Shown here piece by piece: positions 925-38,239 of a DNA stretch of 40,866 bases (positions are counted from its first letter, which is position 1; the number at the start of each line of letters is the position of its first letter). The notes under the pieces were generated by a model. It made no database searches and was not told where the DNA came from. It saw only the letters and a list, made by a program, of their open reading frames with translations. The DNA is from Clostridia bacterium (lineage in GTDB: Bacteria; Bacillota; Clostridia; UMGS1883): NCBI GenBank assembly GCA_045615265.1, contig JAZLEL010000107.1, positions 1 to 40,866 on the forward strand. The letters run 5' to 3'. Both the position numbers and the translations under genes were made by a program.

Positions 925-2661
925 TTATAACCCATCTGTAAGCATTTCGTAGGTGACACCATATTTTTCTGCAATATCCCTTGCGTGTGACATACCCTCA
1001 GGTGGAGCAACTTCTATCCTAAAGGATCTTTGTCCCTCTTCACTTTTCGCAACGAGTGATGACGCCCTGGCATCAGTATTTTCCATATTAAGTTCACTAA
1101 CCGCCTCTCCAAGCTTGTGCATATGTGTATTGTATATTGTCCTGACAGATTTTTTGAGAAGGGCCTTCACAGAATCTTTTGCTATGTAATACCCCTCTTC
1201 AAATGAAGTTGTGGAGAAAGATTCATTGAGCAGATACAAACTGTCCTTCGTACAGGCGGTGTAATTTTCCTTAAAGCGAATACATTCCTCGCCCAATCTT
1301 CCCAGATCAAGGGTCTTGTCTTCGTCTGCCGGAAAATGAGTGTAAATGCAGTCAAGGGGTTTATAGTTAAAGGATGATGCAGGCACAAATATGCCTCCTT
1401 GAGCAAGGGCGTACATAATACCAATGGCCTGAGTAACAGTCGTCTTTCCTCCGCGGTTTGCACCGGTCAGAATATACACTGTATGCTCTTTGTCAAAATC
1501 AAGATCATTTGCAACAATATCGCCCTTTTCCAAACCCAAGATTGCAAGTTTAAGATTGTAAAAGCCCCTAGCCTCCATCTGTATCTCGTTATTATTAATA
1601 ACCTTTGCTTCACAGAAAGTATAACCCTTCATAATATTTTTTTCAATAAACTCGGCAAATCTTATATAATAAACAAATTCGGGGATCACGTGGGAAATAT
1701 TCACAACCGCAATATCCGCATATTTATTGAGAGTATCGCGAAGCTTTTTAAGTAGCATATCAAGCATTTTGTTTGCGGCATTTGAAAGACAAAATGTGGA
1801 ATTGGCCGTTCCGTCACCATCTGCAATTTTCGCTATGGTTTCATGTTTTACACCGCCGCCTGCTAATCCCGTCATTCCGACAAGTGCCATTTTTGATTTC
1901 TTGCTTATGAATTCGCCAAGAAATCCTTCTCCATCTGAAACCGTTTCAGCAGGATGATAATGCATATCTCTATTCCAGTCAGTTCCGTCTTGTATTTTTT
2001 GTTTTGCCGCTATGGCATCTGCAAAATTACTTACTATACTGGATTTTTTGAAATACTTATTGTTAATCGAAATAAGACCCAATCCGGTTGCTTCAAATCT
2101 ATCATTTACATTTATACCCACCGTAACACTCTTCACTTCTGAAGAATGAACCTTGAGTTCAGCAATATCTGCTTTCATTTCGCTAAAATTAGCATCGTGA
2201 TACAGTTCATCAACATATTTTCCAAACCCCTTGAGACCTTCGGATTCGACTGTATTTTCTATGAAGCATTCCTGCATTGCCTCTACACAACTTATATAAT
2301 CGTTAAGTTCATCCATTCTTCGTAGCAGATGCGAGATTCCCATTTTTTCTTCGTAGTTCAAATGATGCACACCAAAATTTCGTATAAACTCAAACTTGTC
2401 AAAAAGCTCTACCATTCGTTTTCTAAGGTTGGGGAATTTCAAGATGTCACAAAAAATCTTCTGTCTGTATTCAGCTACTCTGGGGTCTGCCGTCATATTG
2501 GAAATTATATCCATTATGAGTTTGGATTCCTTGGGATCATTAGTCAGATTCTTACACAAGACATCAAGGGACAAATCGTGACATGTAGTTTCCGAAAGTT
2601 GTTTGTATTCAACCTCATCAAAATCAGGATAAAGAATACTGTATTTCCTTCTAACTTCCAT
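925..2661 (-). CDS. MutS-related ATPase (MutS domain V, no mismatch-recognition domain)
   Basis: Walker A TGANRGGKTT, YTHFPADED, GRLGEE, LLNESFSTT, YNTH and the C-terminal SHARDIAEKYG. RBS GGAAGGTG precedes ATG 2661. Confidence 0.85.
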   Translation of the reverse strand: MEVRRKYSILYPDFDEVEYKQLSETTCHDLSLDVLCKNLTNDPKESKLIMDIISNMTADPRVAEYRQKIFCDILKFPNLRKRMVELFDKFEFIRNFGVHHLNYEEKMGISHLLRRMDELNDYISCVEAMQECFIENTVESEGLKGFGKYVDELYHDANFSEMKADIAELKVHSSEVKSVTVGINVNDRFEATGLGLISINNKYFKKSSIVSNFADAIAAKQKIQDGTDWNRDMHYHPAETVSDGEGFLGEFISKKSKMALVGMTGLAGGGVKHETIAKIADGDGTANSTFCLSNAANKMLDMLLKKLRDTLNKYADIAVVNISHVIPEFVYYIRFAEFIEKNIMKGYTFCEAKVINNNEIQMEARGFYNLKLAILGLEKGDIVANDLDFDKEHTVYILTGANRGGKTTVTQAIGIMYALAQGGIFVPASSFNYKPLDCIYTHFPADEDKTLDLGRLGEECIRFKENYTACTKDSLYLLNESFSTTSFEEGYYIAKDSVKALLKKSVRTIYNTHMHKLGEAVSELNMENTDARASSLVAKSEEGQRSFRIEVAPPEGMSHARDIAEKYGVTYEMLTDGL

Positions 2662-2679
2662 TTTTACACCTTCCAAACT

Positions 2680-3696
2680 TCATTTCGCACTTATACTATT
2701 TTGCATTTCAAACGGATATTGCAATTTAATTTGTTTTCTTATATAGTCCATTTGTTGTAAAATTCTTATACTTTCTGACATAGGCATAATGTCGCTTTGT
2801 GTTTTCCCGGCTCTTATGCAATTACAAACCTCATAAATTTCTTCTTCAAAGCCATCGCCTATGCTGGGCTTTGAAATATGTGTCTGTTTATTATTAACAT
2901 TAACAATAATTTCCTGCGCACCATAAAACAGCGGAACTTCAATATATCCTTTTGTGCCAAAGACATACCCTGTTATTGGTTTCTTTACAGTCATTCCTGA
3001 TGACACAGATGCGATGGCACCATTTTGATATTTTATTAAAATATTTGTCTGACAGTCAACCCCATAATTAACATCTGCCACCGAACAAATATCTTCTGTC
3101 TTATCTCCCAAGAACATTGCAGCAAAATTCAGTCCGTAAACACCGACATCTAAAAGCGAACCTCCTGCCATTTCACCGCGATAAATCTTAGCTTCAGGAT
3201 TATATGGAATATAATCGCAAAAATCTGCCTTAACTCCCCTTATTACACCGATTTCACCACTATTCGCTATTGAAATCGCCTCTTTGATAGCAGGCAGAAA
3301 CCTTGTCCACATTGCCTCCATCAGGAAAACGCCGTTTTCTTTTGCACATTCTGCAAGTTCAATCGCCTGGCGTTCATTAACACATACCGGTTTTTCACAC
3401 AAAACGTGTTTTTTCGCATTAAGGAAAATTTCCGCACAAGGCATGTGTATTGGGTGCGGTGTAGCAACATAAACAACATCGACAAGGTCGGAATTTGCCA
3501 TTTTTTCATACCCAACAAATACGTTTTTGATATTATGTTTATCTGCAAATCCCCTCCCCCTTTCCTCAGAGCGGGAAGCGATTGCGGTTAATTCTGCCCC
3601 TTCAACATTTTTTATTGCGTTGGCAAATCTATTTGCTATTTTGCCGGCTCCGGCAATTCCCCATTTGATTATTTTTTCCATTATCATTTGCTCCAT
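2680..3696 (-). CDS. Gfo/Idh/MocA family oxidoreductase
   Basis: WGIAGAGKIA Rossmann motif, HVLCEKP, MEAMWTRF, GGSLLDVGVY. Confidence 0.92.
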   Translation of the reverse strand: MEQMIMEKIIKWGIAGAGKIANRFANAIKNVEGAELTAIASRSEERGRGFADKHNIKNVFVGYEKMANSDLVDVVYVATPHPIHMPCAEIFLNAKKHVLCEKPVCVNERQAIELAECAKENGVFLMEAMWTRFLPAIKEAISIANSGEIGVIRGVKADFCDYIPYNPEAKIYRGEMAGGSLLDVGVYGLNFAAMFLGDKTEDICSVADVNYGVDCQTNILIKYQNGAIASVSSGMTVKKPITGYVFGTKGYIEVPLFYGAQEIIVNVNNKQTHISKPSIGDGFEEEIYEVCNCIRAGKTQSDIMPMSESIRILQQMDYIRKQIKLQYPFEMQNSISAK

Positions 3697-3788
3697 TTCT
3701 TATTATTAGGTATAACCTATTTAAGCGAGAACTAAAACCAAACATATGTTATAACGACATATTCATTATCTTACATGGCAAGCTTCAA

Positions 3789-5165
3789 TTAGGTTTGGTC
3801 TTGTGGAAGATTTTTTAAAAAGTTCAATACAAGCGGTGCCGAAATAAAAAACGCAAGCACATCTGCTATTGCCTGAGCCGATTGAACTCCGAAAAGTCCA
3901 AAAAGTTTTGTCAGAACCAACAAAATTGGTATAAATAATATTCCGCTCCTGAGCATTGATAAAAAAGTTGCTTTTTTATTTTCTCCTATACTCTGAAAAA
4001 GCATATTTGAACAGATTGTCAACGGGTGGAAAAAAAGTGCTAAAAGCTGCAGTTTAAGACTGACTGTGCCTATCTCAATAACCATCGGGTCATCACGAAA
4101 GATTCCAATTAAGTGATTTGAAAACAACAAGCCAACCACAACAAACACACCCAGAAGCAGTTCTCCTGCCCCGAAGGTAAAGTAAAAAGAACTTTTCACT
4201 CTTGAATATATCTTTGCCCCATAATTAAATGACGCAACGGGCTGAAATCCCTGACCGATACCAAGCCCTACCGCAAAGATAAAGAATGTAATTCTGTTTA
4301 CAATCGACATTGCCGCGACAGCAGCATCACCGCCAACTCCGCCTGCCAGATTATTTAACGTCATTGTAGCAATACTGCTTAATCCCTGACGGCAAAGGCT
4401 TGGAAAGCCTGTTGCCATAATCTGAAATATTCCTTTGGGGTTATCCTTTATTAATTTTACATTAAGCTGACTCACTGTTTTTCCTCTAAAAAACATTGAA
4501 ATTAAAATTAAAAATCCCACAACTTGTGAAATCGCCGTAGAAAGCCCTGCACCTGCTATACCCATATCAAGACCGAATATCAGTATGGGGTCGCATATTA
4601 TATTCAAAACGCCGCCAATGGTAAGACCAATCATAGCGAAAAATGCTTTACCTTCATATCTTAAAATATTATTTAAAGCAAAGCTCGCCATAGTAAGCGG
4701 AGAAGCAATAAGAATGTATATTCCGTATTCCCTTGCATAAGGAAGAATTGTTTCCGTACTGCCAAGCATTCGCATAAGAGGGTCTATGAACATCAGACCC
4801 AAAGCACCAATCAGCGTACCTACAAAAAGACATGCCAGGACACTTAAGGTTGCAAAAACACTTGCACTGTGAGCATCTTTCTGCCCTAATTTCCTTGCAA
4901 TTATACTTCCTGCTCCGTGGCCAAACATAAATCCAAATGCCTGAATAATTGCCATTAAGCCAAATACAACACCTACTGCACCGCTGGCACTGTTACCAAG
5001 CTCACTTACAAAATATGTGTCTGCCATGTTATAGACGTTTGTTACCAGCATACTGATAGTTGTTGGAATGCCCAATGTAATTACAAGCTTAGGTATGGGC
5101 CAGGTGGTCATTTTTTCATATTGATTTACTTCATTATTCTGTTTCATTTGTTCATCTCTTTTCAT
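3789..5165 (-). CDS. MATE family efflux transporter
   Basis: About 12 hydrophobic segments, with YNMADTYFV, NIICDPILIF, GIAGAGLSTAISQ and QPVASFNYGA. Confidence 0.93.
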   Translation of the reverse strand: MKRDEQMKQNNEVNQYEKMTTWPIPKLVITLGIPTTISMLVTNVYNMADTYFVSELGNSASGAVGVVFGLMAIIQAFGFMFGHGAGSIIARKLGQKDAHSASVFATLSVLACLFVGTLIGALGLMFIDPLMRMLGSTETILPYAREYGIYILIASPLTMASFALNNILRYEGKAFFAMIGLTIGGVLNIICDPILIFGLDMGIAGAGLSTAISQVVGFLILISMFFRGKTVSQLNVKLIKDNPKGIFQIMATGFPSLCRQGLSSIATMTLNNLAGGVGGDAAVAAMSIVNRITFFIFAVGLGIGQGFQPVASFNYGAKIYSRVKSSFYFTFGAGELLLGVFVVVGLLFSNHLIGIFRDDPMVIEIGTVSLKLQLLALFFHPLTICSNMLFQSIGENKKATFLSMLRSGILFIPILLVLTKLFGLFGVQSAQAIADVLAFFISAPLVLNFLKNLPQDQT

Positions 5166-5216
5166 AGTATGGGGGGATTATAAAAGCTTTATAATCTGGA
5201 TGCCTATTTTTTAGTA

Positions 5217-5285
5217 ATTGCGAGGCATAAGGTTTAGATGCAAACCCTTTTGGGTGCTAGTTCATATCAAGCTAAGAACAAAAAA
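5217..5285. repeat. Bipartite cassette-boundary repeat, copy 1 (putative att site)
   Basis: attgcgaggcataaggtttagatgca (5217-5242), a 16-nt spacer, then agttcatatcaagctaagaacaaaaaa (5259-5285). Abuts the stop codon at 5286. Confidence 0.9.
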
Positions 5286-5597
5286 TTATTCAGCTTCTTG
5301 CAACGCCTTTTTATATTTTTGTTTCAATTCTTCATGGTTAATATCATTTAACGAAACAGAATAAATTCCTTTTGAAAAATTTTCTCTACTCATCTTGTGC
5401 AACAACCCAAATACACTCCATATCATAAAATCAACACCGTTGCCTGTAATCGCATTCTTATCTTCTGCACTATGCCACGCTTTGGAAAGTTTTTGTGAGA
5501 AAAAACCATTATCATTTCTTAATTCCCCATCCGAAATATCTATTTCTTCAGGAAAAAGCTTTAAAGTATCTTGAATTAATTTTTCTATATTCTCCAT
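5286..5597 (-). CDS. Hypothetical protein (~103 aa), single-gene cassette
   Basis: RBS AAAGGAG about 8 nt upstream of ATG 5597. Lies between repeat copies 1 and 2. No recognisable motif. Confidence 0.7.
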   Translation of the reverse strand: MENIEKLIQDTLKLFPEEIDISDGELRNDNGFFSQKLSKAWHSAEDKNAITGNGVDFMIWSVFGLLHKMSRENFSKGIYSVSLNDINHEELKQKYKKALQEAE

Positions 5598-5634
5598 AGT
5601 CATTTCTCCTTTCGTCAATATTCGACATATCCAT

Positions 5635-5703
5635 ATTGCGAGGCATAAGGTTTAGATGCAGCCAATATTCAACGAAAGTTTGTGTCAAGTTAGTCCAAAA
5701 AAA
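5635..5703. repeat. Bipartite cassette-boundary repeat, copy 2
   Basis: Identical 26-bp block (5635-5660), a 16-nt spacer, then agtttgtgtcaagttagtccaaaaaaa (5677-5703). Confidence 0.9.
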
Positions 5704-5736
5704 TTGTTGTTTCTCACTTGTAATTTAATGTGTATT

Positions 5737-6981
5737 TTACAATCTTTTTAAAACTTCTTGCTTTTTTTCTTCAAATTCTTCTTTTGTAAGAATTCCTTTT
5801 TCATATAAGTTTGCCAATTTATCCAAAAGCTCTATATCGGTATCGTTGGTTTTGCTTGAAGATAGGTTATCAGCATTGGCTTGTATAACTACATCATAAT
5901 CCTTTTCTGGAATTAATTTAGTAAATATTTTATAGGCATTTGAACTAAATGTTATTACTTGCTCTAAATCACTAGAATATAATAATACAACTTGTTCATC
6001 GTGTATTGTTGATGTTCCTTTAACTTCATTAACCGCTTTTCGGCTTCCCACAATAGCACCAACATCACCAGCAATTAAACCACCTATAACAGCCCCTTTA
6101 ATGGAAGAACCGCCTCCGCCACCACCTGTTATTTCGGTTGTGACATATTTTTGACCTATTGATCTAAAATATTTAATGTCATCTATTGAAATATCAACAC
6201 CCTGGCAACTATCTGTATTTAATAAACAAATCTTATCATCTTTTTTCCAATAACGCATTCTTCCGCTCAGATTAAAATCCGCTGAAGATATTTCAAGATA
6301 AACCGCTGGATCTATATCAAAAGGATGTCTACAAGAAACTTTTTCAACAAACATGCCATGTTTAATAGGTTCTGAATATTTGTACGCAATTTGTATCAAT
6401 GTATCTATATCGTTAGTGTATCCTGGATAAAAAGGAAATGCTATTTCACCCTGTGGTTCTAAAATTAACGCAAAATTTTTGACCGTACCATCATCTTTAC
6501 ACTTTTTTATACCAACAATTTTTTCAAAACTCTGTTTTTTGTCCCCTAATTCACGAGGATATAAAATCGTCTTGTTTTCAAGATTAATATCAGCCCATAT
6601 ACTAGGTCTATTTTCATATTCCCACATTAGTATTCTAGTGGCATTTTCATCAATTTCATATTTAACAGGTTTAGTGGCACATATAATACACTTTTTAAAT
6701 AGCCCTGCTATTTGAACTATATAGTAATTAGTAATGTCTTCTTTTTCGCACCCAAAATGGGCTGCAGCTTTTTCTCTACAAGCATCTTCTGAAAAACCAG
6801 AAAAATCCAAACGTATTCTCTCGCCATTCTCATCTGTTTCATTCAACCAATCTTGTTCTAGCTGTTCATCATAATAGATTTTCTCTCCACATTTTGTACA
6901 CAGAAAATAATTACTTACAAATTTGCCCAAACCATCTCTACCACAATTTTTACATTTAAAATAACTCCAGCATCTTTCCAT
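5737..6981 (-). CDS. Zn-ribbon / SHOCT domain protein, single-gene cassette
   Basis: N-terminal CKNC...CTKC, glycine-zipper-like GAVIGGLIAGDVGAIVG, and C-terminal SHOCT-like LDKLANLYEKGILTKEEFEEKKQEVL. Confidence 0.75.
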   Translation of the reverse strand: MERCWSYFKCKNCGRDGLGKFVSNYFLCTKCGEKIYYDEQLEQDWLNETDENGERIRLDFSGFSEDACREKAAAHFGCEKEDITNYYIVQIAGLFKKCIICATKPVKYEIDENATRILMWEYENRPSIWADINLENKTILYPRELGDKKQSFEKIVGIKKCKDDGTVKNFALILEPQGEIAFPFYPGYTNDIDTLIQIAYKYSEPIKHGMFVEKVSCRHPFDIDPAVYLEISSADFNLSGRMRYWKKDDKICLLNTDSCQGVDISIDDIKYFRSIGQKYVTTEITGGGGGGSSIKGAVIGGLIAGDVGAIVGSRKAVNEVKGTSTIHDEQVVLLYSSDLEQVITFSSNAYKIFTKLIPEKDYDVVIQANADNLSSSKTNDTDIELLDKLANLYEKGILTKEEFEEKKQEVLKRL

Positions 6982-7035
6982 ATTTCATTTCTCCCTATTT
7001 TCATAATTTAGACATTATCCAACATAATTTGCATT

Positions 7036-7103
7036 ATTGCGAGGCATAAGGTTTAGATGCAAACCTTTTTAGCGCAAGTTCGCAATAAGTTAGGAACAAA
7101 AAA
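7036..7103. repeat. Bipartite cassette-boundary repeat, copy 3
   Basis: Identical 26-bp block (7036-7061), a 15-nt spacer, then agttcgcaataagttaggaacaaaaaa (7077-7103). Abuts the stop codon at 7104. Confidence 0.9.
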
Positions 7104-7769
7104 TCACTCTTTGTTTTTAATTAGCAAATATACTTGTGACATTATTTTTATATCTGGCACCTTTGCATTTTTAACTTGTGTATCTATAATTTCTCTCATC
7201 AGCGCCATACAGAATTTCATTCCCACATTTTCAGCGATTATATCTTTCAAGTATATATTTTCGCCATCATACTTTTCAGGGAAATTAACTGTAAAATAAG
7301 TCATTTCTTTCTTTTTTTCTTCCCATATTCTATAGTGAAGCGTTCCCTTCCCATCAATTTTTATTGTGGTACATTTTTTTAAGAATTTATCAATTTGTCC
7401 AGCCTTAATCCATGTGGCCATATTTTCATTTATATATACCTCATCCCAAGTTTTAAAAACAGGAAAATGCAAAAGCAAATTTCTTATAAAACTAAACAGA
7501 CCATCCGCTATTACGCCTTCAAGCGGCGGTCTTCCGCCATTTTTCATCCATTCCACATATTGTTTTATCGGTTCATAACTTAATAATTCTTTATATATAG
7601 AAAAAGCTTCTCTTAATTTAAAGAAACGAATATGAGCTTGTTCGTTAAAAAAACTATCGTTAGTTATTTCATCATACAAATCATAGAAACGATTATAAAA
7701 CAAGGTAAGAACTTGTATTTCCTTTTCATTTGGCATATTACTTTCCATTTTATCATGACCTTTATACAT
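7104..7769 (-). CDS. Hypothetical protein with a HEPN-like RX4H motif
   Basis: 221-aa ORF with IRNLLLHFP in a helical-looking region. The HEPN call is an inference from the motif alone. Confidence 0.65.
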   Translation of the reverse strand: MYKGHDKMESNMPNEKEIQVLTLFYNRFYDLYDEITNDSFFNEQAHIRFFKLREAFSIYKELLSYEPIKQYVEWMKNGGRPPLEGVIADGLFSFIRNLLLHFPVFKTWDEVYINENMATWIKAGQIDKFLKKCTTIKIDGKGTLHYRIWEEKKKEMTYFTVNFPEKYDGENIYLKDIIAENVGMKFCMALMREIIDTQVKNAKVPDIKIMSQVYLLIKNKE

Positions 7770-7772
7770 TTA

Positions 7773-9062
7773 CTACTTTTTCATCTCTGATTTTATCCAC
7801 AGAAAACCAAAAAATATAAAGTTTACACTCAATACCACAAAACTCCATTTTTCAGACAACCCAAATATATTATGTATTACCGGAATTGCACCAATGCCAC
7901 TTATAAAAGCGAGTATATATAATAATATATTTAACAACAATGAGTTTTTGTTTTTTCTTTTTTCTTGATAAATCTTCAAATACGAAACCTTAAATTTTAT
8001 AGCTTTCTCATACAACCTAAACGAATTTGTTTGTTTCATATTTTCTATCGCATTTAAAGTAATAATTGGCACTTTAGTCAAGTATGTAATTCTTTCAAGT
8101 TCAAGTTGCTTGTCTATTGTAGTTTCTAGATCATTTGTTATATCAAAATTTATAATTTGCTTGAGCATAAAATACATTTTCATAACTTCAAGCAATTGAC
8201 AATCAAAAAATGCTTGTTGTTCACAATTACTATCGATGTCTGTAACAACTCCCATGTACTCTTGCGAATAATATTTATATGCATGATTGTTGTTAATATT
8301 TTTTAAACTTATCTCTATTTCATTTACCCCTAACACATCCAAAAAATATTTTTGTAAATTCTTTAATTTGTCGGTCACTACAAATATGTTATGTACAAAG
8401 CTAAAACTATCAATTTGATATTTATTATTTGCCACTTTTTCAAGACATCCTGATATATTATTAAAAATTATATCCGATATCTTGTCTACTTTATCTTCAA
8501 ATTTATTTTCATTAAAATAACATATTTTTTCCGTTTGCAGTATGTTGTAGTTATTACTTCTTCCAAATATCTCGTCTTTCTTTAAGGGAACACCTGTTTT
8601 ATAATCGATAAGTTCATAGTTAACAAATAACATATCATTCATAAAAAAAGCCAAAGGATCAACCTGAAGAACTCGATTATTAATTGTAACCAAAAACCTC
8701 TCCATTGTTATATAAAACGGAATTTTAAAAAAGCGCTCATCTAAGATGAGTTCCATAGAATGCGACATATTAAAAATCCACGAAACATTATCTATTTCAT
8801 CTTTGTAATCATCTAAAGTTTTGTCTTTTTGTTTAATTTCAAAATCAAAAGTTGTTAGTTGTTTATAAGGATCAAAATTTCTTTTATATCCTAGAATTCC
8901 TTTTTGCGTTAGTAATTTATTTTCCGTAACAATACTCTCTATATGAAATTGCTTCAAAATATTTTCTTTTCTTTTTGCTTTTTTTAAACTAAAAATTTTG
9001 CCTTTAGATTCATTAATTTTATATGCTGTCATAAAAACAACACAATCTTGTTTTTCTTTCAT
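7773..9062 (-). CDS. Hypothetical protein with two C-terminal TM helices
   Basis: 429-aa ORF with a soluble N-terminus, then LLLNILLYILAFISGIGAIPVI and FVVLSVNFIFFGFLWI. Confidence 0.75.
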   Translation of the reverse strand: MKEKQDCVVFMTAYKINESKGKIFSLKKAKRKENILKQFHIESIVTENKLLTQKGILGYKRNFDPYKQLTTFDFEIKQKDKTLDDYKDEIDNVSWIFNMSHSMELILDERFFKIPFYITMERFLVTINNRVLQVDPLAFFMNDMLFVNYELIDYKTGVPLKKDEIFGRSNNYNILQTEKICYFNENKFEDKVDKISDIIFNNISGCLEKVANNKYQIDSFSFVHNIFVVTDKLKNLQKYFLDVLGVNEIEISLKNINNNHAYKYYSQEYMGVVTDIDSNCEQQAFFDCQLLEVMKMYFMLKQIINFDITNDLETTIDKQLELERITYLTKVPIITLNAIENMKQTNSFRLYEKAIKFKVSYLKIYQEKRKNKNSLLLNILLYILAFISGIGAIPVIHNIFGLSEKWSFVVLSVNFIFFGFLWIKSEMKK

Positions 9063-9121
9063 CTTTTAAAACACGCTTTCATTTAATAGCATTATTATAC
9101 AACAAATTCATTTGCATTTAT

Positions 9122-10138
9122 TTAATTATCCCCATTTTCAATAGTATTGCGCATGCGCTTAATACTGCTACGAATAATTTCTATATACATTTCATCCTGC
9201 TTATCTTCGCTTAATTTTCTTACCAAGTTAACTGTAGACAAAAATCTTTCGTTCTCGTGTAAAGACTCATAATAATGGTTCAATTGTACTAAAGAATTTT
9301 TATAAACAAAAAGGGATGTTCCAGCTATAACTTCTACTATGGCTCCTCCTATAGCAGTTATAATTGAAACTTCATATTTTCCGCTCATAAAAAATGGCAA
9401 GACAACTGCCACTACTATAAGAACAAAACCTAACACGCACATCCATACAGCAAGACGAAAAGAATCTTTTGCTTGAGTTTTACTAAGTGTATAGTATGCT
9501 TTAATTTCAGCCATATTAACAAGCATCAATCTCAAAGCATCATTTTCATCTGTATTATCTTCTGCAACAGAACTCTTTTGATTATTATGTCTAAACGATT
9601 TATTAACTGGCATAACTGTGTTTTTTAACTTTGTAGAATAATTTAATAACTCATCATTATCTTGTTGCCTTTTTAAAACAGAGGTTATTAAAGCCATGCA
9701 ACTTGTGATCAAAATGCTTATTAACGGCAATAGCATTTCCTTAAACAAGCTATATGGAGAAAAAAATAATGAATATACAAAAATTAGCATCAATATGACT
9801 AATATCATCATCATTACAAGTGCCAAAATCTTAATTTTGTTAATATTAAAATTTTTAGGAACTTGCTTTTTTATCGTTTTAAACTCAACCATAAATTTTT
9901 CATAATCACTTATCGAAAGATAGAATTCTGCCTCATAACCATCTTCAGCATAAGTTTCAAAACTTATTACTCCTCTTTTTGATAGTTGGTTAAGATAATT
10001 TTCTAAACTTGATAAATTTATATCTCCAAAAAAATTTGAATAATTTGATTCAGTAAATATAAATTCCTTTTCTTTCTTAAAAATATTTATGATTTTTTGC
10101 ATGACACAAAATTTTTCCTTTGTTGTCAAGTCAAACAC
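9122..10138 (-). CDS. Membrane protein with a TRADD-N-associated 2TM-like C-terminal domain
   Basis: YYTLSKTQAKDSFRLAVWMCVLGFVLI...GGAIVEVIAGTSLFVYKNSLVQLNHYYESL resembles the TRADD-N-associated membrane domain. Two further TM helices lie upstream. Confidence 0.7.
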   Translation of the reverse strand: MFDLTTKEKFCVMQKIINIFKKEKEFIFTESNYSNFFGDINLSSLENYLNQLSKRGVISFETYAEDGYEAEFYLSISDYEKFMVEFKTIKKQVPKNFNINKIKILALVMMMILVILMLIFVYSLFFSPYSLFKEMLLPLISILITSCMALITSVLKRQQDNDELLNYSTKLKNTVMPVNKSFRHNNQKSSVAEDNTDENDALRLMLVNMAEIKAYYTLSKTQAKDSFRLAVWMCVLGFVLIVVAVVLPFFMSGKYEVSIITAIGGAIVEVIAGTSLFVYKNSLVQLNHYYESLHENERFLSTVNLVRKLSEDKQDEMYIEIIRSSIKRMRNTIENGDN

Positions 10139-10185
10139 ATATATTCCCCCTTAATCCGAATGTCCTTACACAATCCATTTATAAT

Positions 10186-10214
10186 ATTATACCATAATAT
10201 TACAAGATTCGCAA
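10186..10214 (-). promoter_or_regulatory. sigma-A promoter for the cargo genes downstream of the recombinase
   Basis: Minus strand TTGCGA-17 nt-TATAAT with extended TG. Confidence 0.65.
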
Positions 10215-10259
10215 TTGTTATTAAGAAAAAGGTCGGTAGCATATTGAACAAAATTCATT

Positions 10260-11861
10260 TTACTGATTTCTATATGAAACATAAACATCAAAATCTTCTA
10301 TGTTCATTAAGTCTTCTTTATTCCGTCGTAGTTTATTTAATCTGTTACCAATGATGTAGTATGCTATTTTTGTCACCCAAGATGCAAATCTGCATTTTCC
10401 GTGATACTTATGTAAAATTTCAAATGATCTTAACAAAGCATCCTGACATATATCATCATAATCTCTCATCATTTGCCAGTATGTATTAAAACCAGCTTTC
10501 CATAAATTATTTCTTATAAACTCTTTTATCTTCTTAAAGGATTCTTCATAAAGCAAATTAAGTGCAATTCTATCTCCATCCAATGCAGCTTGACTCATTT
10601 GATATTCTCGTATTTTATATAATTCATTTTCATTGTAGTCTTTAATTTCAACCGCTATTTCATTGCTGATTTCTATTCTATCAAGATATTGTTTAACTAC
10701 CTCTTCATCATATTTGTAAACCAGTAATTTATCAGCTATAGCCTTTTCAATTTCATCATTTGATACAGTAATTGAATTTTTGCAATTTCTATTTCCATGC
10801 TCAATCCTGCTTGCACATCTCCAAAAAAGTTCATTTCCTTTCTTCGTTTGACGTGTCCTTCGTCTATAACTAGCACCACATTCACTGCAAAATATTCTAC
10901 CGGATAGTAAATCATTTGAATATCTGTTTTTCTTCCTGACAGTCTTATTTTTAACAGTTGATACATTGCTTCTGTTCTCCTTCTCTTGCTGAACTCTGTT
11001 AAACATTGATTTTGTTATAATTGGTTCGTGATGGTTTGTAACCAGGTATTTTGCTTTCTGTCCTTTATTATTAACTTGTTTTCCATCAAGAAAATTTTCG
11101 ACATAAGTTTTCTGTCCTATTACTTCGCCGGTAAGCTTTTCATTTGATATCAGTTTTGAAATTGTTTCGCTACTCCACTTATCTTTTCCTGTTGGCGATT
11201 TAATCCCTGCATTTTCTAATTCTTTTGATATTCCTGATAAGCTATATCCGTTTAGGTACATCTCGAAAATCAATTTTACTATCGTAGCCTCAAATTCATT
11301 GATTATCAAATTTCCATTTTCGTCTTGAGAATATCCATAACAGATTCTATCATATATCTTCGATTTTCCTGTCTTAAATCCATATTCTATACCAAACTTT
11401 ATGTTGCCGCTTTTTGATTCACTTTCCGACTGAGCTACTGTTAGCATTATGGCAAAATCGCTATCACTTGAAGTGGATAATTTCATACCATTCATTTCAA
11501 TCCATACATCTACCCCAAGTGATTTTAAATATCTGAGATTAACGAGACCCTCATAAACATTTCTTCCAAATCTACTAATAGATTTTACAAGAATCAAATC
11601 AATCTCGCCAATCTTACATTTTTCTATCATCTCGTTAAAAGATTTTCTGTTTTCTACTCTTAATCCTGATTTAGTATCGCAATATACACCAACAAAGTCC
11701 CAGTCTGGATTTCTCCTGATCTCGGACTCGTAATTTTTTACCTGAGATTGAAGAGAGGTCGCCTGGTCATTAGTTTCTGTACTGACTCTACAATATGCAG
11801 CCACTCTCAATCTCTTATTCGATTTCTTTTCCTTTTGGGGTATTACAATTACTTCAGGCAT
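10260..11861 (-). CDS. Large serine recombinase with C-terminal sigma-70 region-2-like domain
   Basis: AAYCRVST (catalytic Ser), VKSISRFGRN, recombinase domain RICYGY...NEKLTG...HEPII, Zn ribbon CSECG...WRC...C, plus an extra ~115-aa tail. Confidence 0.92.
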   Translation of the reverse strand: MPEVIVIPQKEKKSNKRLRVAAYCRVSTETNDQATSLQSQVKNYESEIRRNPDWDFVGVYCDTKSGLRVENRKSFNEMIEKCKIGEIDLILVKSISRFGRNVYEGLVNLRYLKSLGVDVWIEMNGMKLSTSSDSDFAIMLTVAQSESESKSGNIKFGIEYGFKTGKSKIYDRICYGYSQDENGNLIINEFEATIVKLIFEMYLNGYSLSGISKELENAGIKSPTGKDKWSSETISKLISNEKLTGEVIGQKTYVENFLDGKQVNNKGQKAKYLVTNHHEPIITKSMFNRVQQEKENRSNVSTVKNKTVRKKNRYSNDLLSGRIFCSECGASYRRRTRQTKKGNELFWRCASRIEHGNRNCKNSITVSNDEIEKAIADKLLVYKYDEEVVKQYLDRIEISNEIAVEIKDYNENELYKIREYQMSQAALDGDRIALNLLYEESFKKIKEFIRNNLWKAGFNTYWQMMRDYDDICQDALLRSFEILHKYHGKCRFASWVTKIAYYIIGNRLNKLRRNKEDLMNIEDFDVYVSYRNQ

Positions 11862-11865
11862 AATC

Positions 11866-12468
11866 TTATAATCCGCTTACTATATTAAGCATGTCATGCG
11901 CCGTATTTATTCCCATGTTGTTTCCTCTGCTTCTTTCTACTTTAGCATTTTGAACAGCTTTGAATAATTCTAAGTTAATGATTGCAGGATGAGTATTAGT
12001 GGTCAAGTATCGATCTACTAGTCCTTTATTATCAACCTGTGTTCCATTAACGGTAACTGTTTTCCGCAAAAGAACTGAACCTACGTATTTTTCATTTGAT
12101 AACAATTTATCTATCGCCTCTCTGTTCCATCTGTCTTTACCTGATGGAGACTTTACTCCTCTCTCGAATAATTCGTTGGCAATTTTACCTAAACTGTATC
12201 CTGAAAGATAGCTTTCAAAGATCCACATTACAGTCAATGCTTCTTCAGGGTTAATAATTAATTCACCCTTATCATTTTGAGAATATCCATAGCATATTCT
12301 CTTTGCTAATTTCGATGTTCCGTTTTGAAATCTTTCTTTATTTGCGTTTTTTATTTCACTACTTCTTGTTTTCATTATATCACTCTCTTCCATATTAATT
12401 TCATTATTCAAATAGCCATTTTCGTAAGAATCTTTATTTTCAATTTTATAATTAATGTGTTTTTTCAT
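11866..12468 (-). CDS. Recombinase-domain-only protein (no catalytic resolvase domain)
   Basis: RICYGY...SPSGKDRW...LLSNEKYVG...HPAII is paralogous to the neighbour's recombinase domain. No YxRVS motif and no Zn ribbon. Confidence 0.85.
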   Translation of the reverse strand: MKKHINYKIENKDSYENGYLNNEINMEESDIMKTRSSEIKNANKERFQNGTSKLAKRICYGYSQNDKGELIINPEEALTVMWIFESYLSGYSLGKIANELFERGVKSPSGKDRWNREAIDKLLSNEKYVGSVLLRKTVTVNGTQVDNKGLVDRYLTTNTHPAIINLELFKAVQNAKVERSRGNNMGINTAHDMLNIVSGL

Positions 12469-12517
12469 TTCATTTAAACTCCTTTCGTTTATTATTACAT
12501 TAAATTTGTTTATGAAA

Positions 12518-12549
12518 AAAGTGCCGTAATCTGTGAATTACAGCACTTT
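12518..12549. terminator. Intrinsic terminator-like hairpin upstream of the recombinase genes
   Basis: aaagtgccgtaat / attacagcacttt inverted repeat with A and T runs on both sides. Confidence 0.65.
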
Positions 12550-12614
12550 CGTTTTTTTCTATATTAAGTTTTAATTTTCGTTAAATTTTCGAGCAGGTTT
12601 GTCAACTTATCAAT

Positions 12615-12641
12615 AGTTCGTGTCAAGTCGGGAACAAAAAA
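12615..12641. repeat. Half copy (block B only) of the cassette-boundary repeat
   Basis: agttcgtgtcaagtcgggaacaaaaaa. The 26-bp block A is absent from its expected position. Confidence 0.8.
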
Positions 12642-12668
12642 TACTTTGATATAATATAGTCGTCTATT

Positions 12669-13028
12669 TTACTTATATTCCCTGAATTGTACGGACACAT
12701 CATCGGGGTCATAAACGTAAAAATACTTTGCATCAGGCTCCGGATGACGAATGTCTGACGGATTCATGCCAAGCGAAACAGCCCGAGCGTGAACCTTCTC
12801 AAGATTATCTGTAGCAAAGCATAAAAACATACCTTTTCCCTCAAACAATTGACCCTCGGGCATGGCTATTAATTCTACTTGGGTATCGTTTTCAGAATCA
12901 TAAAGATAAGCAACATTTCCGCCGCCTGCAGAAAATTGCTTACCGATCTTAAGCTCTACAAGTTCGGTATAAAATTTTAAAGATTTCTCAAAATCTTTAA
13001 CTCTTAACGATATGTGATGAAATTTCAT
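12669..13028 (-). CDS. VOC / glyoxalase family protein
   Basis: FHHISLRVKDFEKSLKFY...YFYVYDPD. RBS GAAAGGA upstream of ATG 13028. Confidence 0.88.
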   Translation of the reverse strand: MKFHHISLRVKDFEKSLKFYTELVELKIGKQFSAGGGNVAYLYDSENDTQVELIAMPEGQLFEGKGMFLCFATDNLEKVHARAVSLGMNPSDIRHPEPDAKYFYVYDPDDVSVQFREYK

Positions 13029-13104
13029 GTTAATTTTCCTTTCTATAATACAAATAATAAATGCCATTACTTTTCATTTGCAAAACAACACAAGTTCCTC
13101 TGTG

Positions 13105-13167
13105 TCAAAGTTTTCGATATTCTTCATTCCCCATGGAAAGAAGGGTTCTTTGAATTGTGTGTTTTAT
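13105..13167 (-). pseudogene. 5' remnant of a possible DNA alkylation repair (AlkD-like) gene
   Basis: RBS GAGGTG, then ATA-KHTIQRTLLSMGNEEYRKL-stop, which resembles N-termini of clostridial alkylation repair proteins. Only 20 codons. Confidence 0.4.
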
Positions 13168-13204
13168 GTCAATCACCTCTATCAAAAACCATTTTTGCTA
13201 ATCT

Positions 13205-13233
13205 ATTATATAACATATTTCTAATAATTACAA
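13205..13233 (-). promoter_or_regulatory. sigma-A promoter reading into the accessory region
   Basis: Minus strand TTGTAA-17 nt-TATAAT. Confidence 0.55.
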
Positions 13234-13238
13234 GCAAA

Positions 13239-13275
13239 AAAGAGGGGGTAAAACCAACTGTTTTGCCCCCTCTTT
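13239..13275 (-). terminator. Rho-independent terminator of rnj-tgt
   Basis: aaagagggggtaaaac / gttttgccccctcttt stem followed by a U tract on the minus strand. Confidence 0.85.
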
Positions 13276-13277
13276 AA

Positions 13278-14408
13278 TCATACTCTGTTATTCATTTTTT
13301 CGAGTGCTTCTGCCTTAAATTCCGCAAACCGATTCTCCTCAATAGCTTTTCTTATCTGTGCCATAAGGTCATTATAGAAATGAAGATTATGAAGCACGCA
13401 AAGACGCATACCGAGCATTTCCTTTGCCTTTATGAGATGGCGTATATAGCTTCTCGAATAGTTTTTGCAGGCAGGACACTGACATCCCTCCTGAAGAGGT
13501 CTTTCATCTTTTTCAAACTTTTTGTTATTAAGGTTAAGAACGCCTATATCTGTAAAGAGATTTGCATGTCTTGCATTCCTGCTGGTAATTACGCAGTCGA
13601 AGAAATCAACGCCCCTTTCAACCGCTTCTAAAATATTCTGCGGTGTTCCTACACCCATAAGATATCTTGGCTTATCTTTGGGCATATGGGGTTCTACCGC
13701 ATCAATTATTCTGTACATTTCCTCTGCACTTTCGCCTACGGCAAGTCCGCCTATTGCATAGCCGTCAAGGTCAAGCTCGGCTATTTTTTTCATATGCTCA
13801 ATTCTTAAATCCTCATACGTTCCGCCCTGATTGATTCCGAAGAGCATTTGATTTTTATTGATAGTATCGGGGAGCGAGTTAAGACGCTTGATTTCATTCT
13901 TGCATCTTTCCAGCCAGCGGTAGGTCCTGTCGCAGGAATTTTTGACATATTCATAAGGAGCAGGGTTTTCAATACATTCGTCAAATGCCATTGCAATAGT
14001 AGATGCAAGATTTGACTGAATCTGCATACTTTCCTCAGGGCCCATAAAAATACGTTTTCCGTCTATATGGGACTGAAAATTAACGCCTTCCTCTGTTATT
14101 TTACGCAGTGACGCAAGGGAGAACACCTGAAATCCACCGCTATCGGTGAGAATCGGTCTGTCCCAGTTCATAAATTTGTGAAGTCCGCCCATATCACGGA
14201 TAAGCTCATCCCCAGGACGAACGTGAAGATGGTAGGTGTTTGAAAGCTCTACCTGACAACCGACATCCTTTAAATCAAGTGATGAAACTGCACCCTTGAT
14301 AGCAGCAGAAGTTCCGACATTCATAAAAACGGGAGTTTGTATTGTGCCGTGCACGGTTTTAAATGTACCCCTTCTTGCACGACCTTCTTGATTCAGTAAT
14401 GTAAACAT
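13278..14408 (-). CDS. tgt: tRNA-guanine(34) transglycosylase
   Basis: TPVFMNVGT, LTDSGGFQVFSL, PRYLMGVG and the CxCxxC...H zinc site. Confidence 0.97.
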   Translation of the reverse strand: MFTLLNQEGRARRGTFKTVHGTIQTPVFMNVGTSAAIKGAVSSLDLKDVGCQVELSNTYHLHVRPGDELIRDMGGLHKFMNWDRPILTDSGGFQVFSLASLRKITEEGVNFQSHIDGKRIFMGPEESMQIQSNLASTIAMAFDECIENPAPYEYVKNSCDRTYRWLERCKNEIKRLNSLPDTINKNQMLFGINQGGTYEDLRIEHMKKIAELDLDGYAIGGLAVGESAEEMYRIIDAVEPHMPKDKPRYLMGVGTPQNILEAVERGVDFFDCVITSRNARHANLFTDIGVLNLNNKKFEKDERPLQEGCQCPACKNYSRSYIRHLIKAKEMLGMRLCVLHNLHFYNDLMAQIRKAIEENRFAEFKAEALEKMNNRV

Positions 14409-37615: not shown

Positions 37616-38239
37616 ATGGACAAGATATCGAAGGAAAACTTCACCTCATTCAGTGATGAAGAATTGGTTATTCTGGCACAGCAAGGTGACGACAAGGCAC
37701 TTGACTATTTAATAAGCAAATACTTTGTCTATGTGCGTAGCAAATCTCTTTCTTATTATATTGTCGGCGCTGATAGAGATGACATAATTCAGGAGGGTAT
37801 GATTGGTCTGTTCAAGGCAGTCAGGGACTTCAGCAGTGAGCGTGGTGTGTCGTTCAAAACATTTGCAGATGTTTGCGTCACCAGACAAATAATCACCGCA
37901 GTCAAGAATGCCAGCAGACAGAAGCATGCACCTCTTAATTTTTATGTTTCTTTAAATAAATCTGTATCCGATGATGAAGATGATTCTACTCTGGCTGATA
38001 TTATTGGTCATACGGGGGATCTTAATCCCGAGGAAATTCTTATAAAGAAAGAAAAAGCAGATATCCTAGGAAGTGAAATGAACCGCCTTCTTTCGCAGTT
38101 TGAGCTTCTTGTGCTTTCCTTATATCTGCAAGGCAACAGCTATTCAGATATAGGAAAAATAATCGGCAAGAATCCCAAATCAGTAGATAATGCGTTACAA
38201 CGCATAAAGAAGAAGTTTGAAAAAATTTCTTCGGATTAA
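37616..38239 (+). CDS. sigH: RNA polymerase sigma factor SigH
   Basis: DDIIQEGMIGLFKAVRDF, RQIITAVK..RQKH.PLN.YVSL, KSVDNALQRIK. Confidence 0.93.
   Translation: MDKISKENFTSFSDEELVILAQQGDDKALDYLISKYFVYVRSKSLSYYIVGADRDDIIQEGMIGLFKAVRDFSSERGVSFKTFADVCVTRQIITAVKNASRQKHAPLNFYVSLNKSVSDDEDDSTLADIIGHTGDLNPEEILIKKEKADILGSEMNRLLSQFELLVLSLYLQGNSYSDIGKIIGKNPKSVDNALQRIKKKFEKISSD

Follow-up and report, generated by a model that had tools for sequence, protein, structure and literature searches.

A conserved fusion of a large serine recombinase with an ECF-type sigma region 2-like domain in Clostridia

Why would a DNA recombinase end in part of a transcription initiation factor? As a rule, site-specific recombination is the task of one set of proteins and transcription initiation that of another, and the question is raised by a 40,866-nt stretch of DNA from a Clostridia bacterium (GTDB lineage Bacteria; Bacillota; Clostridia; UMGS1883; GenBank assembly GCA_045615265.1, contig JAZLEL010000107.1, positions 1 to 40,866 of the forward strand), the whole of which we call the window. 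An original prediction for this DNA held that one of its genes, which we name LSR-sigma2 (10260-11861, minus strand; 533 amino acids (aa) plus stop, open throughout), continues in frame from a serine recombinase into a domain resembling region 2 of sigma-70 factors, and the residues that it quoted after the zinc ribbon are in frame exactly as given. Judged from profile matches and a structural model, the tail is a genuine region 2 (sigma2) domain of the extracytoplasmic function (ECF) type without region 4 (sigma4), and neither decay of a former domain nor faulty assembly accounts for it. More was found than had originally been put forward, since the gene belongs to a family of large serine recombinases (LSRs) with three architectures: short, sigma2 only and sigma2+sigma4.

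The sigma2-like tail spans residues ~411-533 (10263-10631, minus strand), with the TAA stop at 10260-10262. The NCBIfam model SigY matches residues 419-516 at E 2.5e-8 (profile positions 5-93 of 180), 20 more sigma models match, and the PHROGs family phrog_1740, 'RNA polymerase sigma factor', matches the tail at E 6.3e-7. When the last 124 residues alone were searched without a word filter against 1.84 billion representative proteins, 47 proteins were found at E <= 1e-3. The top matches were the gene's own fusion family (P0001 and the fragments P0011, P0012 and P0014) and P0013, an N-terminally cut recombinase with a 49% identical tail; beneath this family came proteins of ~100-280 aa that match through their N-terminal part, and the four proteins checked from this search (P0017, P0021, P0036 and P0038) are sigma factors of the ECF or phage type. 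AlphaFold2, given the alignment from the same search, models the tail with a mean predicted local distance difference test score (pLDDT) of 91.8, and the 12 best PDB rows for this model are all sigma2 domains of ECF sigma factors (sigmaE, SigC, ShbA, AlgU), led by 4lup_A with a template modelling (TM) score of 0.77 over the target and a root-mean-square deviation of 2.7 A. The agreement of SigY, the 1.84-billion-protein search, PHROGs and the predicted fold bears out the proposal that the tail is a sigma-70 region 2 homologue of the ECF type, and the best conserved of its residues are the classical motifs of regions 2.1-2.4.

Some results weigh against this assignment. The Pfam model Sigma70_r2 (PF04542), put forward originally as the profile to run, stays below threshold in this protein (residues 467-513, E 0.0031, 17.7 bits against a cut-off of 24), and in a six-frame search of the genome it reached 21.2 bits, still under the cut-off; that part of the proposal holds for relatives, which pass, but not for LSR-sigma2 itself. 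The NCBIfam model TIGR02937 (sigma70-ECF) gives 25.7 bits against 42.9 and covers profile positions 22-77 only. The Foldseek E-values of the tail model are weak (best 3.5e-3), and the fold is not independent of the sequence match because the alignment behind the model contained ECF sigmas.

The absence of a region 4 after the tail, also claimed at the outset, was confirmed: no region-4 model matches the LSR-sigma2 ORF (open reading frame), the 121-nt spacer behind it or the next gene, and a whole-genome scan with both region-4 families gave nothing in the low-GC island that surrounds the gene and no region-4 coding stretch nearby. The only region-4 match on the contig is in a complete sigma gene of 207 aa at 37616-38239 (plus strand), 27 kb from LSR-sigma2 and unrelated to the island, in which region 2 scores above the cut-off and region 4 just below it. 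Elsewhere in the genome, small ORFs matching region 4 (frames of 128-202 aa) occur at G000:C52:8494-8652, G000:C19:2975-3097 and G000:C64:4054-4215, with no region-2 match reported in the same frame.

The protein in front of this tail is, by its domain content, an intact LSR. All three LSR domains score well above their Pfam cut-offs and lie in order on the minus strand: the catalytic (resolvase) domain PF00239 at 11364-11804 (residues 20-166; 81 bits, cut-off 23.3), the recombinase domain PF07508 at 10971-11291 (residues 191-297; 85.8 bits) and the zinc ribbon PF13408, Zn_ribbon_recom, at 10725-10910 (residues 318-379; 57.7 bits). In alignment A4, S27 is nearly invariant and from its position we infer that it is the nucleophile, while the zinc-ribbon cysteines C325, C328 and C360 are invariant and C349 is nearly so. 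The best recombinase-side NCBIfam models are XisF and CcrB, with scores far under the cut-offs of these named equivalogs (121 bits against 375 and 108.9 against 900, respectively). A full-length model of LSR-sigma2 (pLDDT 78.4) matches solved serine integrases, best 9dxd_A at E 7e-21, with further fold matches to 4kis, 6dnw, Bxb1, PhiC31 and LI. A sigma2 domain is, as originally stated, not part of standard LSRs.

How widespread is the fusion? A cluster search with the tail as query, limited to recombinase-length proteins (53 candidates), found it in 10 protein clusters of 532-537 aa, which align end to end with LSR-sigma2 at 83-96% identity and have tails 73-99% identical to it; tails keep their length and end point across proteins whose overall identity ranges from 96% to ~52%. 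A genome scan with the tail gave six loci (L016-L021) in metagenome-assembled genomes (MAGs) labelled as different Clostridia. Five of them (L016-L020), in independent MAGs with differing genomic surroundings, hold the full gene, and none of these intact loci has a frameshifted or truncated tail. The concern that the fusion might be unique to this assembly is settled by these 10 clusters and five other loci, and the junction between recombinase and tail is covered by contigs of four sequencing runs from three studies of animal gut. Among 40 relatives of the window genome, no close copy was found outside the window's own, the best match being 38% identical.

Substitution patterns indicate that the tail is maintained. 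We compared nonsynonymous with synonymous substitution rates (dN/dS, pairwise Nei-Gojobori) for tail and recombinase core over six genes: in 14 of the 15 pairs the ratio is 0.09-0.24 in the tail against 0.09-0.13 in the core, with dS up to 0.95, and in the closest pair it is 0.33 against 0.27. Ratios of 0.09-0.33 over this range of dS place the tail under purifying selection. The sixth locus, L021, is a decayed platform: at L021:9847-10220 the repeat core and platform start described below are followed directly by the last ~250 nt of the tail-coding region. This remnant precedes a cargo gene for a 766-aa GGDEF-domain protein, of the same length and with the same Pfam domain as that of L020.

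Of 8000 candidates scored in a full-length search, 2068 proteins reached E <= 1e-10, and the best 120 were sorted with sigma2 and sigma4 profiles made from alignment A4. Twenty have sigma2 only (three of these are fragments), 13 have sigma2+sigma4 and 87 have neither. When 19 proteins were scanned with Pfam, P0057 (533 aa, 63% identical) passed the region-2 model at 28.9 bits with no region 4, and P0079, P0091, P0072, P0071 and P0068 passed both models (P0079 with 35.7 bits for region 2 and 35.4 for region 4; P0091 with 41.2 bits for region 2). P0079 and P0068 also exceed the TIGR02937 cut-off of 42.9 bits, with 62.5 and 58.5 bits over the whole 165-position profile, and P0068 is already named 'sigma-70 family RNA polymerase sigma factor' by one source.

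We then placed these forms on a quick, unrooted IQ-TREE tree of the recombinase core (99 rows, 413 columns), from which sequences under 370 aa and P0061, P0065, P0073, P0091 and P0092 had been dropped beforehand. A single clade of 48 rows (support 99) holds all 30 fusions and 18 short forms. Within it, the 18 sigma2-only proteins, LSR-sigma2 among them, form one clade (support 100), and the 12 sigma2+sigma4 proteins are spread over two or more subclades that also contain short forms (4 changes). The simplest reading of this pattern would be one old fusion to a whole ECF sigma factor, from which sigma4 was lost once and the entire tail several times, gain and loss not being formally separable because the tree is unrooted. 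No free sigma gene, as a split form would have, lies beside the short clade members in L031 or L032. Further sigma2+sigma4 loci were sought in 399 scored Clostridia genomes, where no match runs past residue 434 of 598 except in the window's own genome, and in a metagenome scan, which gave only short contigs without repeats. No relatives were found in IMG/VR, and phage and plasmid matches are all below 60% identity, none of the matches listed reaching the C-terminal end.

A second feature sets this clade apart. Canonical LSRs have a long coiled coil inside the zinc-ribbon domain, which acts in synapsis and directionality, and to our knowledge it governs directionality in all LSR members studied. 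In the model of LSR-sigma2, the zinc ribbon is followed by two short helices, a beta-hairpin (393-406) and the tail helices (411-532), and no long helical hairpin precedes the strands of that beta-hairpin. In long relatives, P0121 for instance, an additional ~100 residues with a heptad-like pattern separate the corresponding helix from the hairpin; these are missing from the short forms and the fusions in A4, and the gap is also visible in the tree alignment. By model and alignment, then, this LSR clade lacks the usual coiled coil. Its members are of practical interest as serine integrases that are compact and do without this determinant of directionality. LSRs of only ~380-420 aa, with catalytic domain, recombinase domain and zinc ribbon and with neither coiled coil nor tail, make up 40 of the 99 tree rows (e.g. 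P0080, P0083, P0085, L031:1495-2661 and L032:1447-2604), and some of their clusters hold more than 100 members.

In what setting does the fused gene occur? DNA comparison delimits a block of 2466 nt (12643 to 10178) common to L016 (97% identity) and L017-L020 (83-85%), downstream of which the sequence differs in every locus. This platform starts at 12585-12643 (minus strand), where homology to the five loci begins, with a diverged copy (R4) of the left part of the repeat described below (half copy at 12614-12642); a possible promoter of the recombinase operon, TTGATA-17-GAAAAT, lies at 12613-12585 on the same strand. The platform ends at 10178-10214 (minus strand) with a near-consensus outward promoter of the sigma-A type at 10186-10214 (TTGCGA, 17 nt with TG, TATAAT; 10 of 12 matches) that points into variable cargo. 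In L016-L019 this promoter shows no more than one mismatch, and it marks the platform end in five loci, the homology between loci stopping a few bases past its -10 box; the boundary is probably a crossover site. The tail lies inside the platform, ~80 nt from its end. We also considered an exchange of the tail at integration, with attP in the 3' end of the gene, and rejected it, as the tail and the 80 nt beyond it belong to the conserved platform.

Directly upstream of LSR-sigma2 the platform encodes a 200-aa paralogue (11866-12468, minus strand) that consists of a recombinase domain only (80 bits with the Pfam Recombinase model), without catalytic domain or zinc ribbon. It is 80-91% conserved in the same position at L016:8167-8769, L017:2925-3491, L019:8203-8769 and L020:8263-8769 and is cut by the contig end in L018, and its dN/dS of 0.08-0.18 indicates purifying selection. 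In the sigma2+sigma4 locus L022 the upstream paralogue (219-1079) has a recombinase domain and a zinc ribbon and again no catalytic domain. Every intact platform thus has a paralogue without a catalytic domain immediately before its LSR-sigma gene. This protein may have an accessory role in DNA binding or directionality, and we know of no described counterpart. Relatives of the window genome often have two adjacent serine-recombinase genes (G003:C5:120850-123235, G024:C19:1298-3654, G021:C119:2800-5180 and G037:C11:26668-30227), and in G034:C33 and G012:C87 a short recombinase-domain stretch with one TAG stop lies upstream of a full LSR.

Behind the platform, the variable cargo of the window (5286-10138, minus strand) comprises ORFs of 338 aa (with a TRADD-N-associated two-transmembrane (2-TM) domain), 429, 221, 414 (SHOCT) and 110 aa, none of which is present in the other platform-bearing loci. 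The first cargo gene (9122-10138, minus strand) encodes the TRADD-N-associated 2-TM protein; in L018 the cargo (1914-4596) is PycTM with two cyclase-domain proteins and is Pycsar-like, and in L017 (5195-8467) it is a DUF5677 protein with a PLD-like protein. These first cargo genes look defence-related, and PADLOC returned no match on the window cargo. The GC content of the island is 26-33%, against ~42% around it.

Three copies of a 74-nt repeat lie among the cargo on the minus strand: R3 (7036-7109) between cargo units, R2 (5635-5708), and R1 (5217-5290), the last copy, at the boundary between low-GC and host DNA in front of a MatE gene. Over 94 nt, R1 and the last repeat of L016 share 87% identity, and the L016 copy adjoins an unrelated gene. 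All three share an identical 26-nt core that occurs nowhere else in the window genome. Searched for in other loci with at most 5 mismatches, the core was found three times downstream of the platform in L016 (13552-13596, 14566-14650 and 15517-15618), once upstream of it in L017 (1820-1906) and once in L021, while the parts of L018-L020 that were retrieved have none. With the window counted, four of seven loci thus have both repeat and platform. Of the two points originally put up for checking, whether homologues keep the fusion and whether they co-occur with the repeat, the first held, and the second in only three of the six other loci. In two of four gut metagenome runs (X3 and X4), repeat bins were ~10x deeper than their surroundings and contigs broke off sharply at both edges of a ~35-nt core; from this depth and these breaks, the repeat occurs in many contexts in those communities.

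By analogy, the repeat looks like a site at which exchangeable cassettes recombine, though neither an empty site nor a clear excision product was seen. In two same-genus species, the MatE orthologues (75% and 71% identical) lack both the repeat and the glyoxalase gene upstream, and no insertion site could be derived from them. 'Skips' and 'goes back' joints, considered as signs of excision, have a shorter side of 21-36 letters and are explained by the repeat's many contexts. An inverted match of 7 nt, with one partner at the platform end and the other at the end of the repeat, was set aside as too short and noticed only afterwards. Rfam gave no match in 4500-13500, repeats included, and by eye, not by folding, the repeat has no strong dyad.

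What, then, might a sigma2 domain do at the end of a recombinase? We tentatively favour, at somewhat less than an even chance, that it docks the DNA-bound recombinase on RNA polymerase and so couples the state of the recombination sites to transcription. The original suggestions for the tail, namely tethering of recombination to RNA polymerase or promoters, regulation of cassette transcription and help in melting DNA, are likewise conjectural. The domain most likely descends from a predecessor in which the recombinase was joined to an entire ECF sigma factor (sigma2+sigma4), as seen in related branches of the clade, and has been kept without sigma4 under purifying selection, in the recombinase of a 2.47-kb mobile platform with exchangeable, often defence-type cargo. 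The tail would bind the beta-prime clamp helices of the RNA polymerase core, as sigma2 domains do according to the accessible part of PMC6648896, and would perhaps hold a melted -10-like strand; the recombinase's own DNA-binding domains would take over the job that sigma4 has in the relatives; and in this way transcription of the neighbouring cargo or of the gene's own operon would be tied to the occupancy or state of the recombination sites. A role on RNA polymerase is the simpler fit because the motifs of regions 2.1-2.4 are the best conserved and relatives carry a complete sigma factor, and we also counted in its favour that the platform ends exactly at a strong outward promoter. In a gap-free HMMER alignment of the tail with region 2 of E. 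coli sigmaE, the position of F64 is occupied by Y and that of W73 by W, which is nearly invariant in alignment A3; the accessible part of PMC6648896 gives F64 and W73 as -10 pocket residues and N80 as the 'wedge'.

Several observations count against docking. The sigmaE wedge residue N80 is replaced by Y in the tail and by H, S, R or A in the sigma2+sigma4 relatives. The outward promoter looks, from its sequence, like an ordinary sigma-A promoter needing no special factor, and short clade members presumably work without any sigma part. A cognate promoter was not identified: a scan for sigma-70-type promoters gave 50 sites against 45.4 +/- 7 in shuffles, with the outward promoter alone standing out, and the repeat, considered as an ECF promoter (GAAC-type -35, TCTAA-type -10), was rejected on account of its 18-19-nt spacer and poorly conserved -35. 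We are more doubtful about a stronger version, in which LSR-sigma2 would be a recombinase-anchored sigma factor that, bound at the platform end and at the 74-nt repeats ahead of each cargo unit, recruits RNA polymerase, opens the DNA and starts transcription of the cassettes that it has itself captured, with sigma4 fully replaced by the recombinase's DNA-binding domains in the sigma2-only clade.

The best-surviving rival, which we consider rather unlikely but still to be reckoned with, leaves RNA polymerase out altogether and sees in sigma2 a recombination-control module replacing the coiled coil, through synapsis contacts, binding or melting of crossover-site DNA, or docking of a directionality factor. 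The clade does lack the coiled coil with which canonical LSRs manage synapsis and directionality, the conserved paralogue without catalytic domain in every intact platform suggests unusual accessory control, and the platform boundary coincides with a -10 box, the type of sequence that sigma2 contacts. Anti-sigma factors, for their part, bind sigma2. There are, however, short members lacking both coiled coil and tail, so loss of the coiled coil does not require a tail in compensation, and the conservation of regions 2.1-2.4, together with relatives whose complete sigma factor scores above curated cut-offs, also speaks against this rival. A further rival, to which we assign a low probability, makes the tail a competitor or decoy for the RNA polymerase core, or an anti-sigma target, that modulates host transcription or senses stress without directing transcription at the sites of the recombinase itself. 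It would suit a sigma2 that, without sigma4, cannot read a -35 element, as it would the conserved motif of regions 2.1-2.2 and the statement, in the accessible part of 10.64898/2026.10.08.757525, that sigma2-only proteins are common in bacteria and phages; but it gives no reason for a covalent tie to a DNA-bound recombinase across three architectures, and the platform has no conserved anti-sigma-like gene.

A tail without function, left over from a sigma2+sigma4 fusion whose 3' part was lost, would agree with the missing region 4, the single sigma2-only clade and the scores below curated cut-offs, yet it is very improbable given the dN/dS of 0.09-0.33, the constant length and end point and the intact loci free of broken tails, the one decayed copy (L021) having lost its recombinase too. 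An artefact (chimeric assembly, read-through, or a host sigma gene whose 5' half an inserted element has separated from the rest, for which the skin element is a known precedent among serine-recombinase elements that split sigma genes) is refuted for a source that is admittedly a MAG of 139 contigs, as the same ORF recurs in 10 clusters from several sources and five independent MAG loci, sits inside a conserved platform with its junction spanned in four runs of three studies, and has no region-4 coding stretch nearby.

Our literature searches found no paper describing a recombinase-sigma fusion. In the main text of two ECF surveys (PMC7826278 and PMC7671368) the words 'recombinase' and 'resolvase' occur zero times, though their supplementary tables may list such architectures, and the accessible part of 10.64898/2026.10.08.757525 makes no mention of recombinases. 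A conserved fusion of a serine integrase with a sigma domain suggests a direct link between the site where DNA is cut and joined and the site where RNA polymerase starts. Should the tail indeed bind polymerase, nature would offer here a sigma module that is targeted by a foreign DNA-binding scaffold, a principle for which dCas12f-sigmaE is the example known so far, and docking, if true, would explain how small cargo platforms of gut Clostridia express their cargo, often defence genes. The stronger version, a recombinase-anchored sigma factor, would if true be a serine-recombinase counterpart of the integron with a built-in initiation factor.

Each known system resembles LSR-sigma2 in part. It shares the catalytic, recombinase and zinc-ribbon domains with LSRs and serine integrases such as A118-LI, Bxb1, PhiC31, TP901-1, CcrA/B, XisF and SpoIVCA, but unlike them it has no coiled-coil insert and carries sigma2 appended after the last beta-hairpin. 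With ECF (group 4) sigma factors such as E. coli sigmaE and B. subtilis SigY, SigW and SigX it has region 2 in common, in sequence and in predicted fold; it differs from them in having no sigma4, in bearing the domain C-terminally on a 410-residue recombinase and in the replacement of the wedge Asn. Skin-type elements (sigK/SpoIVCA) likewise place an LSR next to sigma coding sequence, whereas here the sigma part is of the ECF type, belongs to the recombinase ORF and the platform, and has no matching 3' half nearby.

At the level of the locus, the platform followed by exchangeable units that are separated by a repeated site recalls both the staphylococcal cassette chromosome (SCC, with CcrAB) and integrons. 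SCC also has an LSR-type recombinase with a second recombinase-like gene adjoining and repeats flanking its units, although the partner gene in our platform lacks a catalytic domain and the repeat is found in four of seven loci only. The outward promoter reading from the platform into the units resembles the integron Pc promoter, but the platform recombinase is of the serine type, unlike the integron with its tyrosine integrase IntI, attI and hairpin attC sites. A parallel to the logic proposed for LSR-sigma2 is dCas12f-sigmaE, in which, according to the accessible part of 10.1101/2025.06.10.658880, a DNA-targeting protein supplants -35 recognition: in both cases a DNA-targeting protein of mobile-element origin goes with an ECF sigma. 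As far as that source goes, dCas12f and a complete sigma factor act there as separate proteins, whereas in LSR-sigma2 the link is covalent and sigma4 is missing.

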